DNA of 64,000 nt from an uncultured Candidatus Saccharimonas sp. Lineage in GTDB: Bacteria > Patescibacteriota > Saccharimonadia > Saccharimonadales > OMJO01. Below the pieces are notes generated by a model. That model ran no database searches. It saw only the letters and a program-made list of their open reading frames with translations, and was not told the DNA's origin. Shown here piece by piece: positions 2,607 to 61,000 of the stretch. The stretch is taken from positions 237,803 to 301,802 of the forward strand of contig CALRAM010000001.1 of assembly GCA_943353165.1 (NCBI GenBank), written 5' to 3'. The position numbers and the translations under genes are program-made. Within the stretch, counting starts at the first letter, position 1. Each line of letters opens with the position of its first letter.

Positions 2607-3637
2607 GCTGGTTTCTTTTTTTGCATATTCTTGTTATAGAAATAATACCCGGGAGGCAACTGAATTAGCATATTTAAAATCCGATACATTATGGTAACAG
2701 GAATACTCAACCCCGGGCTAACACCTGCAGCTACCAGCACACCTGTCATCAACGCTTCAAAAATTCCAACACCGCCAGGTAACACAGATATAAATCCTGC
2801 AAAGCTGGCCACAGCGTATGCCAATATAACTGCTCCGGGATTAACGAATTGACCAAACGCAACATAGACCGTGTAAATGGTCAAAATTTCTGTTGTGTTG
2901 GCAGCTAACGCCCACAATAAAGGCGCTTTCAAAGCTCTCCAGTCGGATTTGAGCATCAAGTAGTTTTCGTGCAGGGTTGTAACATTTTCTCTGGCCTTGG
3001 CTATGCTGATTGTCTCTGATTTTTGTCGTCTAAAAAAATAAATTGACTTGTTGACTAGTCTAGTCAAAAAAGTAAAAAAAGAATTTATTCTGGTCTTGCT
3101 GCCTATTATGAAGGCTAACCCAAAAGTGGCAACTACTAATAATGTAGCTAGAGAACCTGCTACCAAAATAGTCAAACGGTTTGCGCTGCCTCCAATCGCC
3201 AACATCAACAGACCGGCTACTAGTAGAATCTGAAAAGATAAAAATATGGATATAAACTTTACCAACTGAACCAGCGTAGACTTGGTACCCGAAACTCCTG
3301 CGTCCTTCATTCGCAAACTAAAATAAGAGAAACTAGAAACCCCACCACTAGGAAAAACAGTATTTATAAAATTTACTTCCATAGTTACCCTCAGCATTGA
3401 CTTGTAGCGAATATGCTCGCCCAGAATTTTGAAATATTGCATATACAATCTGGTATATGAATGGTAATTTATGGCCTGCCAAACCAACATTGCTGGCAAT
3501 ACCCAAAAATCAACTCTACGAAGGTTATCTATGGTTAAAAATATTTGTCTCCTTACGGCAATAATCAAAACAGCCAACGCCAAAAAGGTAGCAATATTTA
3601 AAACTAGTTTCCAGCGACCGTTTGCCAATTTATGCAT
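2603..3637 (-). CDS. polytopic membrane protein, lysylphosphatidylglycerol-synthase-TM / flippase-like (UPF0104-like)
   Basis: 344 aa with about 8 hydrophobic helices. The N-terminal pattern (RWKLVLNIATFLALAVLI...IDNLRRVDFWVLPAMLVWQAINY) resembles the UPF0104 family. ATGA overlap with xseA. Confidence 0.55.
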   Translation of the reverse strand: MHKLANGRWKLVLNIATFLALAVLIIAVRRQIFLTIDNLRRVDFWVLPAMLVWQAINYHSYTRLYMQYFKILGEHIRYKSMLRVTMEVNFINTVFPSGGVSSFSYFSLRMKDAGVSGTKSTLVQLVKFISIFLSFQILLVAGLLMLAIGGSANRLTILVAGSLATLLVVATFGLAFIIGSKTRINSFFTFLTRLVNKSIYFFRRQKSETISIAKARENVTTLHENYLMLKSDWRALKAPLLWALAANTTEILTIYTVYVAFGQFVNPGAVILAYAVASFAGFISVLPGGVGIFEALMTGVLVAAGVSPGLSIPVTIMYRILNMLIQLPPGYYFYNKNMQKKKPA

Positions 3638-3681
3638 ATATCCAACATTATACTCGAAAAACGGCTATACTAATCAACATA

Positions 3682-19211: not shown

Positions 19212-19218
19212 AGTTATA

Positions 19219-20034
19219 TTATACCGTAGCTTTGCCTTTTGTTTTTAATGCTTTTGATTTTTGTAGATGCTCAATTGTTAATTCAGTCCTTTTTCTGGCA
19301 TAAACACAATAGTCGCATTCTCCGCCCATTGCCGCCATACCTACTGCCGGCATATCACCCTCTAGGCATTCTTTCATTTTCAACAGTGTTTTTGCCACCC
19401 ATTTGTCAGTTCCAATATGCGGAAATACGTTTGTACGGAAATTTACTACGTCGTTAAACCCGTCGGCATTTACGTCACCGTTTGCGTACACAAAATACCC
19501 TGTATCGCTCACTGTATGACCATTTGCTCTCAGTAACCATTGATACACTTCCATTTGCCGTCTATAGCTATCTTGCCATCCACCAACTGGACCTAAATCC
19601 GTAATTTCATCACTTTTTGCGGTGGCTTTGTAGTCAACGACTATAAGTTCACCTGCTGGATTCACCCAAACATCATCTACTGCGCCAAAGACGTGTAGAT
19701 TAGTGAGATCATGTACCGTGGCAACACCAGTAAAGTTGGCACGCCATTTGTCCAGATCTTTGTGTGGATATGGAATAGCATCTATCTTAAACTTCACCTG
19801 CAGTGGATGGGGAGTTCCAGCTTTTCTATGTACGTCAAATTCTTTTTTGAACAGCTCATCAATCGCTGAATTTATTCTAAAGGGAGGCCCGTTTGGTCGT
19901 TTTATCTTGAGTCGAGCATCTAGCCAAAAACACCTTGAACACTGCGTAAAAAGCTCAATCTTACTCCGAGAAACTTTAAAAACTTCTGTTTGACCAGGCT
20001 GAAATGGTTTACTTCGTTCTGTCCAATAATTCAT
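19219..20034 (-). CDS. PD-(D/E)XK superfamily nuclease, Cas4/AddB-like with Cys cluster
   Basis: Core GAVDD...ELIVVDYKATAK (D...D/E-x-K). One N-terminal Cys pair (CSRCFW) plus a C-terminal GGECDYCVY, suggesting an Fe-S ligand pattern. The probable start ATG at 20034 forms an ATGA overlap with the rsmE stop. Confidence 0.6.
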   Translation of the reverse strand: MNYWTERSKPFQPGQTEVFKVSRSKIELFTQCSRCFWLDARLKIKRPNGPPFRINSAIDELFKKEFDVHRKAGTPHPLQVKFKIDAIPYPHKDLDKWRANFTGVATVHDLTNLHVFGAVDDVWVNPAGELIVVDYKATAKSDEITDLGPVGGWQDSYRRQMEVYQWLLRANGHTVSDTGYFVYANGDVNADGFNDVVNFRTNVFPHIGTDKWVAKTLLKMKECLEGDMPAVGMAAMGGECDYCVYARKRTELTIEHLQKSKALKTKGKATV

Positions 20035-30232: not shown

Positions 30233-30255
30233 TATAGTTCTACATTATACCGTAA

Positions 30256-30807: not shown

Positions 30808-30884
30808 TGTTTATCCTACTTTCTATTTTTATTATACAGATTTATGCGTTAGAAGTTCAATCCAACAATAACCAGTCGATCTGA

Positions 30885-35918: not shown

Positions 35919-36051
35919 CTGTCCATATATTATACCAAACTCTAGCTACATTACACTTTTACTTATATCTTGTGTTTTAACTTGCCGTATTCCAAAGTAG
36001 CACTAATAACCTGTTAATTTATGTCATTCTGAGGTATAGTCTAAACTGGTT

Positions 36052-47298: not shown

Positions 47299-47359
47299 TT
47301 TTTTTCTGTTTTTTCTCTTTTAAGTGCGTATTTATTTTTTGTTGCGAGCACTTAACAAA

Positions 47360-47389
47360 ATTATACCTCTTATGCCTCTTTGAACACAA
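47360..47389 (-). promoter_or_regulatory. candidate promoter of the giant gene
   Basis: The minus strand reads TTGTGT-18 nt-TATAAT. The predicted ~60-nt leader contains a perfect 8-bp inverted repeat TTAAGTGC/GCACTTAA (47320-47327 and 47348-47355). Confidence 0.35.
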
Positions 47390-47393
47390 ATAG

Positions 47394-47402
47394 TTATCCA
47401 CA
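47394..47402 (+). promoter_or_regulatory. perfect DnaA box TTATCCACA (proximal, 4 nt from the predicted -35)
   Basis: Exact 9-mer consensus inside the 17-bp repeat TAGTTATCCACAGTTTT. Confidence 0.6.
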
Positions 47403-47467
47403 GTTTTTGCTTTTTTCTGACCCCTGTTAACTCAATATTGGGTACAAGTTTTATTCATATTGTCTAG

Positions 47468-47476
47468 TTATCCACA
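47468..47476 (+). promoter_or_regulatory. perfect DnaA box TTATCCACA (distal)
   Basis: Second exact copy of the same 17-bp repeat, 74 bp from the first in the same orientation, ending 3 nt from the stop codon of the 283-aa gene. Confidence 0.6.
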
Positions 47477-47479
47477 GTT

Positions 47480-48331
47480 TTACACTAGCAAAATCAGGTA
47501 CGCAGCCGACAATCCCATAGCAATAATCACTAGCGCCAGAATAGATGCCCTTAGCATGCCGTTTACGATACTATCTCTGGACAGTGGATTTCGTCCCAAA
47601 GATATAAAACTACCCTTTACGGAACCGTTCAGTATCAGGCCAGCCAGCACAAAAGTTCCCAGCGCTACAACCATAGCTGCAACGACTTTGAGGGAATTTG
47701 TTGGCTTGCCTGTCAGTTTCTCGCTAAAAGAGGAAAATACATTCTGGGACTGCTTGTTGTCGGCACTAGTTCGGTCATTTAATATCAATTTAACAGGTAT
47801 AATCCCAACGGCTACAGTTTTTTTGGCGCCTTTGGCGTCTTTTATGCCTATTTTGACCACATCTGCGTTCTTGTTAGTAAACGCTTTACCAGCAGTGGCG
47901 ATAATCTTTTTTGACACCACATCTGTCGTAAACAGCATTGCTACCCCAGACAATGCCGAAACTGTCAGCTTGTCTCCGGGCTTTATATCGCCGTTCAGGT
48001 CTGTAACCAGCAAATTTGCGTCACCGCTGACAGTCACCAATATCTGACTGCCTGCAGATTGCAGACCTATCAAACTATCGCTGGAATTTGATGCTACCCC
48101 CACCAGTGTTGATTCATTCTCTAATGTTGTTTTTTCTACAGTATTACTGGTACCTTTGGTCAGGCTAACTATCGAACCAGTGGCCACGGGAACAGTGGCC
48201 AAAAAACCTTGAGTCAAAGCCCCAGCACCCACCGCAATAGTAGATATAAAGGCGGTCAAAATGCCCCCACCTAACACTTTAAATATAGTATGCTTTGTCA
48301 ATTTTGTACCGTGCCTGTTTCTTATCCTCAT
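47480..48331 (-). CDS. hypothetical membrane protein (N-terminal anchor, ~190-aa exposed domain, two C-terminal TM helices)
   Basis: 283 aa. N-terminal TM FKVLGGGILTAFISTIAVGAGAL. C-terminal helices VVAAMVVALGTFVLAGLIL and ASILALVIIAMGLSAAYLILLV flank GRNPLSRD. AAGAAGG RBS. Confidence 0.55.
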   Translation of the reverse strand: MRIRNRHGTKLTKHTIFKVLGGGILTAFISTIAVGAGALTQGFLATVPVATGSIVSLTKGTSNTVEKTTLENESTLVGVASNSSDSLIGLQSAGSQILVTVSGDANLLVTDLNGDIKPGDKLTVSALSGVAMLFTTDVVSKKIIATAGKAFTNKNADVVKIGIKDAKGAKKTVAVGIIPVKLILNDRTSADNKQSQNVFSSFSEKLTGKPTNSLKVVAAMVVALGTFVLAGLILNGSVKGSFISLGRNPLSRDSIVNGMLRASILALVIIAMGLSAAYLILLV

Positions 48332-52329: not shown

Positions 52330-55095
52330 CTACGAGCAACCAGTGGTTGAACCACAGCTGGTACAAACATAACAACTGCCCGCCTTTTGGGTTTGGTTGC
52401 CACAGTTATAGCACAGCGGAGAGGTGTCGTCAGAGCCCGATGATTTTTGGGCATATTCGTTGACTTCTTTTGTCATAGTTACTGGCAGTGCTTCTATTTT
52501 TTCTATCAGAGCTACTGGTTTTGGTTCCATGGTATCTGTCAACAGACTAGTCTGTTGGTCAGGCATATCGTCTATGGAAGCCAATCCCAGCTCTAGTCGG
52601 TCATCAAAGCTTAGATAGCTCAGCGCCAAACGACGAAATATATAGTCCACTAGTGATGACGCAGTTCGCACATCAGGGTCATCTGTTATGCCAGACGGAG
52701 CGAAAGACATACTAGTAAAAGATTTGACGTAATCTTTTAGAGGTACTCCAAACTGAAGACCGTGACTAACGCTGATGGCAAAGGCGTCCATGACACCCCG
52801 AAGCGTAGATCCTTGTTTGGATATATTTACAAAAACCTCTCCTGGAGTTCCGTCATCGTATTGTCCTACTGTTATGTACCCATGACTGTCTGCTACTTTG
52901 AAAGAAAATGTAGTGGCAGTACGTACTTTTGGCAATTCCCTGCGAATAGTACCTCTGACTATTACCCTGTCGTTCAAACTATCTGCAGAAACGTCTGGGG
53001 TTTCTGTGGCGCCTTCTTTTTTGGCCATAGACAATGGTTGTGCAACTTTGCAGTTATCTCTATATACTGCTACCGCTTTTAGCCCCAGTTTCCATGATTC
53101 TATATGTAGCTGTTCTATGTCTTCAACTGTGGCATCTTCTGGCATATTTACTGTCTTGCTGATGGCACCAGAAATAAATGGTTGTACTGCTGACATCATT
53201 TTTACGTGACCCATGTAATGAATGGAGTTATCTCCCATGGAACACGCAAATACCGGTTCATGCTCCTTTTTTAGGTATGGAGCGCCTAGAATAGACTTTT
53301 CTTCGTCAATATATTTTACTATTTCTGTTACTTCTTTTTTGGAGTAACCCAAGGCATTTAGTGCTCGTGAAACTGTCTGGTTTACGATGCTCATCGTACC
53401 ACCGCCAACCAATTTCTTTAGTTTTACTAGTCCCAAATCTGGTTCTATTCCAGTAGTATCGCAGTCCATCATCAGCCCAATCGTACCAGTTGGAGCCAAG
53501 ACACTTGCCTGTGCGTTCCTGACACCATGAAGTTCGCCCAGCTCTACAGCATCGTCCCACGCTGTTGTAGCAGCACTTAATAGTTCTTCTGCCACCAGAC
53601 TAGCGTCTATCTTAGACACTTCTTCGCGGTGCATTTTTAGGACATTTAACATTCCCTGACGATCCTTGTGAAAACCAGCAAATGGACCTACTTGGCGTGC
53701 CAACTTGGCGCTTGTAGTGTAGGCGTGCCCTGTCAATAGTGCAGTTATAGCTGCAGCCTGAGCCCTACCTTCATCGCTGTCATAGGGTAATCCCTGGGCC
53801 ATCAGCAAGGCACCGAGGTTAGCGTAGCCGATACCAAGTTCTCTGTAAGCCTTTGCATTTTTTGTGATGTTTTCTGTTGGGTATTCACTGTAACCCACTA
53901 GAATTTCCTGTGCTGTAAATATCAGCTCAACAGTGTGCTTGAAAGCTTCTATGTCGAAAGTATTGTCTGCTTTTAGGTATTTCAAGAGGTTAATCGAAGC
54001 CAGATTACAAGCTGAATCATCCAAGTGCATATATTCGCTACAAGGGTTGCTGGCGTTGATGCGACCTGCTTTTGGTGATGTGTGCCATCGGTTTATAGTA
54101 GTATCAAACTGCATGCCAGGATCTGCACACTCCCAGGCTGCTTCTGCAAATTGTCGAAACAAATCTCTGGCTTTGATAGTTTTTACTGTTTCGCCTGTTT
54201 TGACTGCTTTTAGGTCCCAGTCGGCGTTGGCTTCTACGGCCTGCATAAATTCGTCAGTAACTCTGACAGAATTGTTGGCGTTTTGGTACTGAACAGAGAA
54301 CAAGTCTTTTCCGTCCAATGTCATGTCAAAGCCAGCTTTTTCTAGGGCGCGGGCTTTTCGCTCTTCTATAGCCTTGCACCATATAAATTCCATTATATCT
54401 GGGTGATCAGCATTCAAAATAACCATTTTTGCGGCCCGGCGTGTTTTTCCACCGCTCTTTATCGCTCCTGCCGAAGAGTCTGCGCCCCTCATAAAGCTTA
54501 GCGGTCCAGAAGCTGTACCAGCGCTCTTTCCCAAAGTTTCTACAGACGACCGAATACCGCTGAGGTTTATACCTGAGCCTGAACCGCCCTTGAAAATCAT
54601 TCCTTCTTCTTTGTACCAGTTCAAAATAGCTGGCATGGTGTCCTCTACCGCCAAAATAAAGCAAGCGCTGGCCTGTTGTGCGCGACTAGGAACACCTATA
54701 TTAAACCAAACTGGCGAATTAAAAGCCGCTCTCTGAGTAGCCAAAATATATTTTAGTTCCTCTCGGAAATCCGTTGCCTCGGCTTCGGTATCAAAATAAC
54801 TCTCCTGCAAACCTTGCCTAGCAATAGTATCCACAACGCGATCTATCAGGTTGCGTAGCGAGCTTTCTCTATCATCGCTGCCCGGAGTGCCCGTAAAATA
54901 CTTCTGGGCCACTATATTTATGGCATTTTGACTCCAGCCTTCAGGAAAATCAACATCTTTTTGTTCAAAAACAGGTTTTCCTGTCATTGGATTCATAATT
55001 ACAGAGTCGCTCTTGACCCACTTTAGCTGGTCGTAGCCTTTGCTCTTTACTGGTGTTAATAGTCTTCTGTGACCCAAGATTGTTGTTTGTCCCAT
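52330..55095 (-). CDS. nrdJ: class II (adenosylcobalamin-dependent) ribonucleotide reductase
   Basis: 921 aa. Active-site region ...ASNPCSEY..., TGIEPD, and the C-terminal Cys-rich tail CYNCGNQTQKAGSCYVCTSCGSTTGCS typical of NrdJ. GAGGG RBS. Confidence 0.9.
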   Translation of the reverse strand: MGQTTILGHRRLLTPVKSKGYDQLKWVKSDSVIMNPMTGKPVFEQKDVDFPEGWSQNAINIVAQKYFTGTPGSDDRESSLRNLIDRVVDTIARQGLQESYFDTEAEATDFREELKYILATQRAAFNSPVWFNIGVPSRAQQASACFILAVEDTMPAILNWYKEEGMIFKGGSGSGINLSGIRSSVETLGKSAGTASGPLSFMRGADSSAGAIKSGGKTRRAAKMVILNADHPDIMEFIWCKAIEERKARALEKAGFDMTLDGKDLFSVQYQNANNSVRVTDEFMQAVEANADWDLKAVKTGETVKTIKARDLFRQFAEAAWECADPGMQFDTTINRWHTSPKAGRINASNPCSEYMHLDDSACNLASINLLKYLKADNTFDIEAFKHTVELIFTAQEILVGYSEYPTENITKNAKAYRELGIGYANLGALLMAQGLPYDSDEGRAQAAAITALLTGHAYTTSAKLARQVGPFAGFHKDRQGMLNVLKMHREEVSKIDASLVAEELLSAATTAWDDAVELGELHGVRNAQASVLAPTGTIGLMMDCDTTGIEPDLGLVKLKKLVGGGTMSIVNQTVSRALNALGYSKKEVTEIVKYIDEEKSILGAPYLKKEHEPVFACSMGDNSIHYMGHVKMMSAVQPFISGAISKTVNMPEDATVEDIEQLHIESWKLGLKAVAVYRDNCKVAQPLSMAKKEGATETPDVSADSLNDRVIVRGTIRRELPKVRTATTFSFKVADSHGYITVGQYDDGTPGEVFVNISKQGSTLRGVMDAFAISVSHGLQFGVPLKDYVKSFTSMSFAPSGITDDPDVRTASSLVDYIFRRLALSYLSFDDRLELGLASIDDMPDQQTSLLTDTMEPKPVALIEKIEALPVTMTKEVNEYAQKSSGSDDTSPLCYNCGNQTQKAGSCYVCTSCGSTTGCS

Positions 55096-55252
55096 TTTAC
55101 CCTCACTTTTTAAAATTTATAGTTATTGTTGTTTTTGTTTAGAGTTGCGTAACGCTCTCTTACTTTACGCTTTGCTCCCCCCGAGTTTTAAACCCTGCGT
55201 AAACTTAATAGTAACGCATATATATAAAACCGCGGGGGCAACCGTCAAAACT

Positions 55253-55726
55253 CTATTTTTTGACGCCAGTTGCTTTGCGATTACGAATTTGTAATAGCTC
55301 CTTTTCAAAGCCCGCTATATCTTTGAAACGTCTGTAGACGCTTGCAAACCTGACATATGCGACCTCATCCAGTGATGCCAAACCATCCATTACCATTTCA
55401 CCTATTCTGTTTGTGGCGATTTCGTCATCTCCACAAGACCTCAATTGTTGCTCTACATCTGCAACTAGGGCCTGTAACTGCAAATTGGTTACAGCAGTTT
55501 TCTCGCATGCACGATATAGACCTGCCAAAAGTTTTTCTCTGTCAAAAAGCTCTCTAGTACCGTTATTTTTTACCAATATAACCTGTGGTCTCTCTACACG
55601 TTCATAAGTAGTAAAACGATGCTGACAACTGATGCATTCGCGGCGGCGACGTATAGCCTCGCCCTCCGTAACATCTCTTGACTCTATAACTTTGGTGTCG
55701 TTTTTGTGACATCGGCTGCATTTCAT
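55253..55726 (-). CDS. nrdR: transcriptional repressor NrdR
   Basis: N-terminal zinc ribbon MKCSRCHKNDTKVIESR...CISCQHRFTTYE followed by an ATP-cone. Confidence 0.9.
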   Translation of the reverse strand: MKCSRCHKNDTKVIESRDVTEGEAIRRRRECISCQHRFTTYERVERPQVILVKNNGTRELFDREKLLAGLYRACEKTAVTNLQLQALVADVEQQLRSCGDDEIATNRIGEMVMDGLASLDEVAYVRFASVYRRFKDIAGFEKELLQIRNRKATGVKK

Positions 55727-60360: not shown

Positions 60361-60576
60361 TTACTGTTGGCCAAGTTTAAGCTTTTTGAGCTTTATATTC
60401 TTTCGTTCACGACGAACGATAGCTTTTTTGCGTCGATCAGGTTTGCTGATTGGCTTTTCAAAATGCTGCAACTGTTTGGCATTTGCTATAACACCCGACT
60501 GTTGAACTTTTCGTCCAAATCGACGAAGCAAATTTTCTAATGACTCTTTGGAGTCTTTGCGTGTTACTTGTATCAT
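60361..60576 (-). CDS. rpsU: 30S ribosomal protein S21
   Basis: 71 aa, basic. ...ESLENLLRRFGRKVQQSGV...HFEKPSxKxRRKK pattern. Confidence 0.85.
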   Translation of the reverse strand: MIQVTRKDSKESLENLLRRFGRKVQQSGVIANAKQLQHFEKPISKPDRRKKAIVRRERKNIKLKKLKLGQQ

Positions 60577-60622: not shown

Positions 60623-61000
60623 TTATAGTATGCCGGGCTGCTGATTTTTTTGTTTGATTCGTTGTGACTTTAACACTATGCTCTGTAACTCTTTGAATAT
60701 GGCGAAGTTTTTGTTCGTATGGTAAATCTTTGTATTTCCCTGGCGCTCTGATATGAGAAATCCAATTTTTTCCAATCGTTTTAGTTCGCGCTGTATGTTG
60801 CCCGCATCTTCTTTGATAAGTTTTGCCAGACCCCTGACGTGCGTCTTGAAATCGGGGTACTTCGCATACACCACAATTATCTTTCGTCTGACTCTGGAAG
60901 TTATAAATACATCTAACATAAGCTCTTCTATTGTTATATGAACAACATTGAGTATACGGTAGACTCCAATAGTTTTCAATACATTTTTGCTTTTGACCAT
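60623..61000 (-). CDS. small winged-helix transcriptional regulator (ArsR/MarR-like)
   Basis: THVRGLAKLIKEDAGNIQRELKRLEKIGFLISERQGNTKIYHTN reads as HTH plus wing. The start is uncertain (Met at 61000 or 60919). Divergent from priA. Confidence 0.55.
   Translation of the reverse strand: MVKSKNVLKTIGVYRILNVVHITIEELMLDVFITSRVRRKIIVVYAKYPDFKTHVRGLAKLIKEDAGNIQRELKRLEKIGFLISERQGNTKIYHTNKNFAIFKELQSIVLKSQRIKQKNQQPGIL

Follow-up and report, generated by a model that had tools for sequence, protein, structure and literature searches.

Within a 64-kb stretch of the genome of an uncultured Candidatus Saccharimonas sp. (hereafter the window) we analyzed the intergenic region located upstream of a gene that encodes a giant surface protein of 2876 amino acids (aa). 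This gap of 181 bp, with a guanine plus cytosine (GC) content of 30%, separates the giant gene from a co-directional minus-strand gene encoding a membrane protein of 283 aa, and it includes two perfect copies of the 9-mer recognized by the initiator protein DnaA (the DnaA box). The copy proximal to the giant gene abuts a predicted promoter, and a box at this position is kept in 11 divergent lineages of Saccharimonadales. From this conservation we propose that the proximal box is a putative DnaA-bound regulatory site of the giant-gene promoter, a reading to which we assign a probability of roughly 0.55, and that the giant gene is its presumed target. DnaA-box operators located outside the replication origin (oriC) are a known kind of element; this candidate belongs to a phylum for which none has been described in the literature searched, where the combination of Saccharibacteria and 'DnaA box' returned no paper.

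Conservation of the proximal DnaA box

Orthologous gaps were gathered from sequences in which the flanking 283-aa protein is from 96% to 38% identical to that of the window, and a narrow-alignment locus search gave 4 genome loci and 6 metagenome loci; the sequences are designated here by L numbers. Where the 283-aa protein is identical (L001-L004) the gap is 99% identical, and these sequences are uninformative. The 11 divergent lineages, with flanking proteins 47-63% identical, all keep one box of the form TGTG[G/T/C]A[T/A]AA (present in L015, L017, L006, L007, L020/L005/L025, L021, L022, L024, L032 and L033), and in every lineage down to 47% identity the box is located 4-5 nt upstream of the motif TTGTGY-17/18-TATAAT. 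The sequence TGTGGATAA, which is the coding-strand form of the perfect box TTATCCACA, is found as a 9/9 match in six lineages (the window, L006, L007, L021, L032 and L033), together with TGTGGAAAA in L020/L005/L025 and L024, TGTGTATAA in L015 and L022, and TGTGCATAA in L017. The variation is confined to positions 3 (A/T) and 5 (C/A/G) of TTATCCACA, which correspond to the W and the N of the relaxed consensus TTWTNCACA, and the orthologs in the 11 lineages match this consensus with 0 mismatches. Among nine lineage representatives, column conservation reached 0.94 for the box, 0.96 for the -10 hexamer and 0.85 for the -35 hexamer, with values of 0.54 for the promoter spacer and 0.50 for the gap between the box and the -35 hexamer. 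That the box is kept at the level of the -10 hexamer and varies only at the degenerate positions of the consensus supports its assignment as a putative DnaA operator.

The G that trails the strong box is also conserved in the orthologs. Relaxed boxes were found 28 times in 214 kb of related loci, 15 of them at the giant-gene promoter site, and the remaining ones occur at ~0.06 per kb, roughly the chance rate. In L015 and L006, where an insertion lies between the gene end and the promoter, the box has remained next to the promoter. The original prediction, made from the window alone, had offered DnaA-linked control of the giant gene as one of two readings; the position, orientation and sequence of the box, kept in 11 lineages, argue in favor of it.

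Exactly 2 bp upstream of the strong box, and in the same orientation, most orthologs carry a weak partner, (A/C)GTG(T/C)AAAA, that matches the box at 8/9 positions with the last base off; a partner with one mismatch at this spacing is present in 8 of the 14 orthologous sequences (L017, L006, L020, L005, L025, L022, L032 and L024). In most orthologs the double box begins 0-5 nt past the upstream stop codon. The weak partner is non-coding in L017, L020/L005, L006 and L032, so that coding constraint alone is insufficient to account for it. In L006 (positions 3186-3232) the upstream open reading frame (ORF) ends ~40 nt earlier, and an apparent relic of the usual gene end, TTAGTGTAA, persists as non-coding DNA and forms the weak partner, which suggests that the partner box was retained independently of coding.

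Additional boxes were observed within the core promoter of some lineages. An extra inverted box, TTATACACAg, lies between the -35 and -10 elements of L022 (2440-2467) and L032 (1047-1077), a position that suggests repression, and a near-box, TGTGCATTA, occupies the same promoter spacer in L021. In L022 the inverted box and the upstream box form an 11-nt palindrome, TGTGTATAAAC...GTTTATACACA.

Architecture of the gap in the window

Read on the coding strand, the gap contains the stop codon of the 283-aa gene, the distal box, a 57-nt spacer, the proximal box, CTAT, TTGTGT, 18 nt, TATAAT, UUAAGUGC, a 20-nt A-rich loop, GCACUUAA, the A-rich leader and the ATG of the giant gene (Table 1). The two perfect boxes, both on the plus strand and 74 bp apart, are the only ones in the window, and each is enclosed in one copy of a perfect 17-nt direct repeat, TAGTTATCCACAGTTTT, whose copies have the same 74-nt spacing; the original prediction had described this arrangement correctly, as well as the position of the proximal box 4 nt upstream of TTGTGT-18-TATAAT on the minus strand.

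Table 1. Features of the gap upstream of the giant gene, and selected genes of the window (positions in the window).
Feature	Position	Strand	Remarks
Giant gene, 2876 aa	38668..47298	-	N-terminal transmembrane anchor; repetitive Thr/Gly/Ser-rich body; sub-threshold Kelch hits only
A-rich leader	47299..47319	-	No Shine-Dalgarno sequence; immediately upstream of the ATG (47298-47296)
Leader stem-loop	47320..47355	-	UUAAGUGC, 20-nt A-rich loop, GCACUUAA; begins approximately at the predicted transcription start
Predicted -10 element GGTATAAT	47360..47367	-	Hexamer 47365-47360; 18-nt spacer to the -35 element
Predicted -35 element TTGTGT	47384..47389	-	Weak, 3/6 compared with TTGACA; separated by CTAT from the proximal box
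Proximal DnaA box TTATCCACA	47394..47402	+	TGTGGATAA on the coding strand; in repeat copy 47391-47407; conserved element
Decayed weak partner	47405..47413	+	Coding-strand form AAAGCAAAA, with 3 mismatches; at 2 bp from the proximal box
Spacer between repeat copies	47408..47464	.	57 nt; homologous to the L015 spacer
Distal DnaA box TTATCCACA	47468..47476	+	In repeat copy 47465-47481; species-specific
Near-box TTTTACACT	47478..47486	+	Coding-strand form AGTGTAAAA, matching at 8/9 positions; at 1 bp from the distal box
283-aa membrane-protein gene	47480..48331	-	No Pfam family; conserved C-terminal GSFISLGRNPLS hairpin
rpsU (S21)	60361-60576	-	Pfam E = 4e-10
98-aa ORF	60623-60919	-	Weak sub-threshold winged-helix-like hits (DUF4423, HVO_A0114); ends 18 nt from priA

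The two perfect boxes compare with ~0.66 expected in the window, and at least two were found anywhere in 10 of 100 shuffles. Boxes with one mismatch occur at the chance level (19 observed, 17.5 expected), therefore the signal consists of two perfect sites and not of a cluster. When the gap was resampled 2000 times under a first-order Markov model, a repeat of 17 nt was reached only once, and only three distinct exact direct repeats of at least 14 nt within 200 bp exist in the whole window; inside the gap, no direct repeat beyond the 17-nt pair was found. Relative to the predicted transcription start, the proximal box extends from about -49 to -41 and the distal box from about -123 to -115; given that 74 bp is equivalent to ~7.0 helical turns, both boxes would face the same side of the DNA.

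What is peculiar to this species

A spacer of ~75 bp, placed between the gene end and the box with its promoter, is common to the window and L015 (63% identity), and over the gap 91 of 129 aligned columns are identical. The distal box was found only in the window, L001-L004 and L009, and it is absent from L015, the nearest of the other lineages sampled, despite the common spacer. The confinement of the distal copy to the strains of this species indicates that the 17-nt repeat arose recently, through a duplication or conversion specific to this lineage, upon an old, putative single operator. In consequence, the emphasis that had been placed on two boxes within a 17-bp repeat was misleading, even though the repeat is present here. 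Compared with L009, whose flanking protein is 96% identical, the gap shows three substitutions, none of them in the boxes, which is not significant (p about 0.6, an estimate).

The near-box that accompanies the distal box is spaced by 1 bp, versus 2 bp in the orthologs, and it is built from the terminal codons of the 283-aa gene, the stop codon included; the distal repeat copy overlaps this stop codon (47480-47482). Neither a promoter nor a terminator was detected in the spacer between the repeat copies, and downstream of the distal box, by scan and inspection, there is no promoter with a spacing of 16-18 nt. A segment of the spacer common to L015 (47423-47439, GTACCC...ACAGGGGTCA) can form a short ACCC/GGGU stem, after which no U-run is found.

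The predicted promoter and the leader hairpin

The -35 element of the predicted promoter is weak, as is typical of activator-dependent promoters. The motif GTATAAT shows no overall enrichment in the window, with 10 copies versus 9.9 expected; six of them immediately precede gene starts and have the matching orientation, which supports the assignment of the -10 element. For several genes this motif lies ~6-24 nt before the start codon (3647-3653, 19218-19224, 30244-30250, 30831-30837 and 35929-35935, all on the minus strand), and this suggests leaderless mRNAs or mRNAs with very short leaders. A Shine-Dalgarno-like motif was observed at only ~17 of the 52 gene starts in the window, and the 55-nt structured leader of the giant gene is an exception among the short leaders.

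The perfect 8-bp inverted repeat that had been reported in this leader is present, with the arms TTAAGTGC (47320-47327) and GCACTTAA (47348-47355), and it folds as an 8-bp stem (-7.4 kcal/mol, z = -2.1); the T-rich region next to the ATG was likewise verified, and it is A-rich on the mRNA strand. Covariation in the leader was analyzed by means of per-sequence folds and a manual pair table. All 13 orthologous leaders fold into a single stem of 5-8 bp, which starts 4-8 nt after the -10 element and encloses an A-rich loop of 14-23 nt, with z-scores from -1.4 to -3.9, and the fifth pair of the stem is A-U in 3, G-C in 9 and G.U in 1 of them. Other stems are found at the same place in L023 (GGCAGU/AUUGCC) and L010 (UGGGGUGA/UCACCCCA). 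RNAalifold predicted no pairs on the MAFFT alignments of the leaders, in which the 5' arms are misaligned, and Rfam gave no match in the region or in the window. The variable length of the loop and the covariation favor an RNA element over a DNA operator as the identity of the hairpin. A role as a terminator was rejected, given that no U-run comes after the stem.

The most economical reading is that the 5' stem-loop probably acts as a stabilizer of the 8.6-kb message, whose 5' end is predicted. Stem-loops that stabilize mRNAs from the 5' end are known in the ompA leader of Escherichia coli and the aprE leader of Bacillus subtilis. The hairpin described here resembles them in being short, stable and located near the predicted 5' end of a long and probably abundant message, and in that its structure is conserved more than its sequence; it differs in the unusual A-rich loop of 14-23 nt with a conserved AAAAAUAAA-like core, and in that here the transcription start is a prediction only. 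The A-rich loop with this core could be instead a protein- or ribosome-binding element.

Comparison with known DnaA-regulated systems

The in vivo targets of DnaA in E. coli are mainly pairs of boxes separated by 2-3 bp, whose strong member usually is TTATCCACAg (PMC11317965; Stringer, Fitzgerald, Wade). The double box of nrdA, TTATCCACAaagTTATGCACT, shows the order strong-then-weak and a CACT ending (PMC11317965 Table 1). It has been proposed that at nrdAB, DnaA bound to high-affinity boxes stabilizes RNA polymerase and that high DnaA-ATP represses, and in general DnaA is well established as able both to activate and to repress transcription via promoter-adjacent boxes (PMC8203912). Most of the orthologous gaps resemble nrdAB in that a strong box is followed by a weaker CACT-ending box in the same orientation, 2-3 bp apart and beside a predicted promoter, and they match the nrdAB switch in the weak -35 element with an abutting box and in the existence of lineages with extra boxes in the core promoter. 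In contrast, the target would be a giant surface protein and not nucleotide synthesis, the ancestral spacing is 2 bp, and in this species the partner is decayed and a second perfect box is found 74 bp away.

The genes directly regulated by DnaA include dnaA-dnaN, sda, ywlC, yydA and vpr in B. subtilis, and gcrA, ftsZ and podJ in Caulobacter (PMC8203912). As in the proposed operator, these boxes are located outside oriC at the promoters of genes unrelated to replication, and couple them to the status of the initiator; however, the known regulons are supported by chromatin immunoprecipitation (ChIP) and expression, and frequently have several boxes, whereas here there are 1-2 boxes and comparative evidence. 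Consensus boxes outside oriC are also present at datA, DARS1/2 and the B. subtilis clusters, with double boxes at datA and DARS (PMC11317965), but these loci have more boxes and act on the nucleotide state or the availability of DnaA, not on an adjacent promoter. The multiple, promoter-independent boxes of a titration or reactivation locus are not observed at the giant gene, which has 1-2 strong boxes at a fixed distance from the -35 element. The datA and DARS loci also carry accessory sites for IHF and Fis.

A model for the regulation of the giant gene

The ancestral layout would have consisted of a strong box and an 8/9 near-box located 2 bp further upstream in the same orientation, right after the preceding stop codon. 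Next would have come the promoter, then a 5' stem-loop of the mRNA, and then an A-rich leader that lacks a Shine-Dalgarno sequence. Both in L015 and in this species, the distance between the gene end and the promoter with its box would have been increased by an insertion of ~74 bp, and the weak partner would have decayed; in this species alone, a second perfect copy of the box would have appeared at the old position, 74 bp upstream. DnaA, whose amount and ATP/ADP state track the initiation of replication, would bind to the operator at about -45 and tune the recruitment of RNA polymerase to a sigma-70-type promoter. We lean slightly towards activation, exerted from the upstream strong box on a promoter with a weak -35 element, given that this weakness favors this sign, as does the extension of the double box in the direction opposite to the promoter. 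The extra core-promoter boxes of L022 and L032 favor repression at higher occupancy, and in these lineages repression would be expected by analogy with the nrdAB switch.

A broader claim is made here tentatively, with doubts that outweigh our confidence in it: that DnaA directly controls the giant surface protein throughout a family-level clade of Saccharibacteria, and in this way couples its output to the status of replication initiation. Belonging to this same tentative claim, the operator would be still evolving, through the gain of a second box 74 bp upstream in this species and of an inverted box within the core promoter in another subclade.

Several observations weigh against the proposal that the proximal box is a DnaA operator. 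A simple consensus promoter scan did not call the giant-gene promoter, its -35 match being too weak, and both this promoter and the transcription start, at an A in ~47353, are predicted. The box was scored on the classical consensus, which may not be the DnaA box of this clade; single boxes that fit the consensus are often unoccupied, since only 13 of 32 are bound in E. coli in vivo (PMC11317965), and the proximal box of this species has no good partner at 2-3 bp (AAAGCAAAA, three mismatches). Coding constraint may partly explain why the weak partner is conserved, since in many orthologs it overlaps the end of the upstream gene, with its conserved C-terminal codons and its stop codon. At 40-42% identity of the flanking protein the box is degenerate (TGTGTACAA in L008, TGTATACAA in L010), and at 38%, in L023, it is absent. 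Moreover, a box centered at -45 appears compatible with either sign of regulation.

Alternative explanations

That the motif merely resembles a DnaA box, and is the site of another DNA-binding protein or an upstream promoter (UP) element of RNA polymerase, seems to us fairly unlikely. The sequence does not fix the identity of the binder, the conservation reaches past the 9-mer to AAAAC on the upstream side, and the -35 hexamer holds TGTG at a fixed distance of 5 bp, which makes a larger composite site conceivable in a group of bacteria whose regulation is essentially unstudied; nonetheless, the match is 9/9 in six lineages and varies elsewhere only at two known degenerate positions, the flanking G and the near-box at 2 bp mirror the in vivo sites of E. 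coli DnaA, and the conserved CTGTGG core is unlike an A/T-only UP element. For the lack of fit to this core, both a CRP/FNR-like site and a UP element were rejected, and so was a second DnaA box formed by the TGTG of the -35 hexamer, as its constant 5-bp spacing is disfavored by the E. coli data (PMC11317965). It is unlikely that DnaA binds but acts as a roadblock or insulator against read-through from the 283-aa gene, or that the site is a small DnaA-titration site for replication timing. DnaA-box complexes can block elongating RNA polymerase, as older E. coli work indicated. In most orthologs the double box closely follows the upstream stop codon and the two genes are not separated by an intrinsic terminator, this species keeps one perfect box at the promoter and another at the gene end, and reports on E. 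coli and B. subtilis describe chromosomal boxes outside oriC that titrate DnaA (PMC12371093, PMC3245932). However, the box follows the promoter when gene end and promoter part, what is conserved is the fixed distance of 4-5 nt to the -35 element, and 1-2 boxes are far fewer than those of datA or the B. subtilis DnaA-box clusters. We consider it very unlikely that the 17-nt repeat arose as a neutral side effect of the ~74-bp insertion or duplication, with boxes that lack a function; the species-specific distal copy and the three L009 substitutions, whose absence from the boxes is not significant, would fit this explanation, but it does not agree with a proximal box kept at the level of the -10 hexamer in 11 lineages while neighboring positions are ~50% conserved.

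The other reading offered by the original prediction was that the two boxes are part of a chromosomal replication origin, or its remnant, close to parAB; perfect DnaA boxes in an AT-rich gap and the presence of parA-parB 9 kb away would agree with it, and the locus uses the same 9-mer recognition element as a bacterial oriC. We consider this extremely improbable. On the plus strand, each 2-kb bin between 1 and 64 kb has a negative GC skew; a 510-kb scaffold (ENA ERZ28612983, MEHR18-2_SAMN08331095 scaffold_5), identical to the window over 11,007 bases, adds 10 kb rightward (L026), and the skew is still negative across this extension, so that up to ~73 kb no change of sign was found, neither at the gap (47.4 kb) nor at 61 kb. 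The AT skew tracks the gene strand and the GC skew does not, which indicates that the whole region is one replichore whose leading strand is the minus strand. At ~61 kb, where a polarity switch had been noted, the strand of the genes does switch, but the apparent 580-bp gap is not empty, since it is filled by rpsU and the 98-aa ORF, transcribed divergently from priA. The locus lies in the interior of the 510-kb scaffold. A dnaA signature was not found in the six-frame translations of the window, in agreement with the original prediction, nor in those of the related loci scanned, and the DnaA family is absent from the called-gene Pfam table of the 10-kb extension, where no six-frame scan was made. 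The genes of this extension are fmt, infB, an S1-domain gene and a ROK gene. Neither a canonical parS nor a tRNA gene was found in the window, and no repeated AT-rich unwinding element was seen on inspection of the gap. The 17-mer itself was rejected as a parS-like site, as it is not palindromic and does not fit TGTTNCACGTGNAACA. In short of what characterizes an oriC, the locus has two boxes (one strong box in the orthologs, with one-mismatch boxes at chance) and no cluster, no inversion of the GC skew, no adjacent dnaA or dnaN and no unwinding element; on these grounds, together with the lack of parS and the coding content at 61 kb, the origin reading was rejected, and the locus leaves the knowledge of origins unchanged.

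Implications

Almost nothing is known about gene regulation in Saccharibacteria, whose ultra-small cells have few regulators, and in the rest of the Candidate Phyla Radiation (CPR). The locus provides a precise, conserved and experimentally tractable cis-element composed of the putative operator, the predicted promoter and the leader hairpin, in which the candidate regulator is encoded by every bacterium and the giant surface proteins are thought to be relevant to the epibiotic lifestyle. If the broader claim is true, this would be the first defined link between a transcription factor and its target, and the first cell-cycle circuit, in the CPR, and it would tie the output of the largest envelope or host-contact protein to the replication status in a minimal cell. 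If the proximal box is a DnaA operator, the oriC of the clade would be expected to carry TTATCCACAG-type boxes, including pairs at 2-3 bp, far from this locus. If DnaA binds here, the 'double DnaA box' rule would extend beyond E. coli. The locus may also serve as a case study of how a putative operator evolves when a box is duplicated, a partner decays or an inverted box is acquired.

The surrounding genes

The order ileS, rplU, 283-aa gene, giant gene is conserved in the related contigs, and orthologs of the giant gene lie downstream of the same promoter in all the related loci. Annotated homologues of the 283-aa protein belong to Candidatus Saccharibacteria / Saccharimonadales alone, and the gene invariably lies between rplU and the giant gene. 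Besides its N-terminal signal anchor, the protein shows strong conservation of a C-terminal helix-loop-helix (NGSVKGSFISLGRNPLS...), which seems to us reminiscent of the hairpin loop of the ATP-synthase c subunit. The genes of the window include ileS, rplU, an nrdJ-type ribonucleotide reductase (RNR) gene, nrdR, ftsZ, ftsA, map, adk, priA, def and parAB. The nrdR gene is located directly upstream of the class II (B12-type) RNR gene, whose product has a Cys-rich C-terminal tail (52330-55726, minus strand); unlike the nrd genes of E. coli, neither of them has a DnaA box.

The giant protein contains a near-identical internal duplication (residues ~385-440 and ~520-575, with GIGIAPAYKLDVNGDINIVGTSALRIGGDIKCTASGCDATSGSGSYIQNGNGIQ twice) and many degenerate repeats. 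Its gene has a GC content of 0.45-0.50, versus ~0.42 in the surroundings, with a GC skew near zero at 40-43 kb, and the assemblies of close strains all break inside it.

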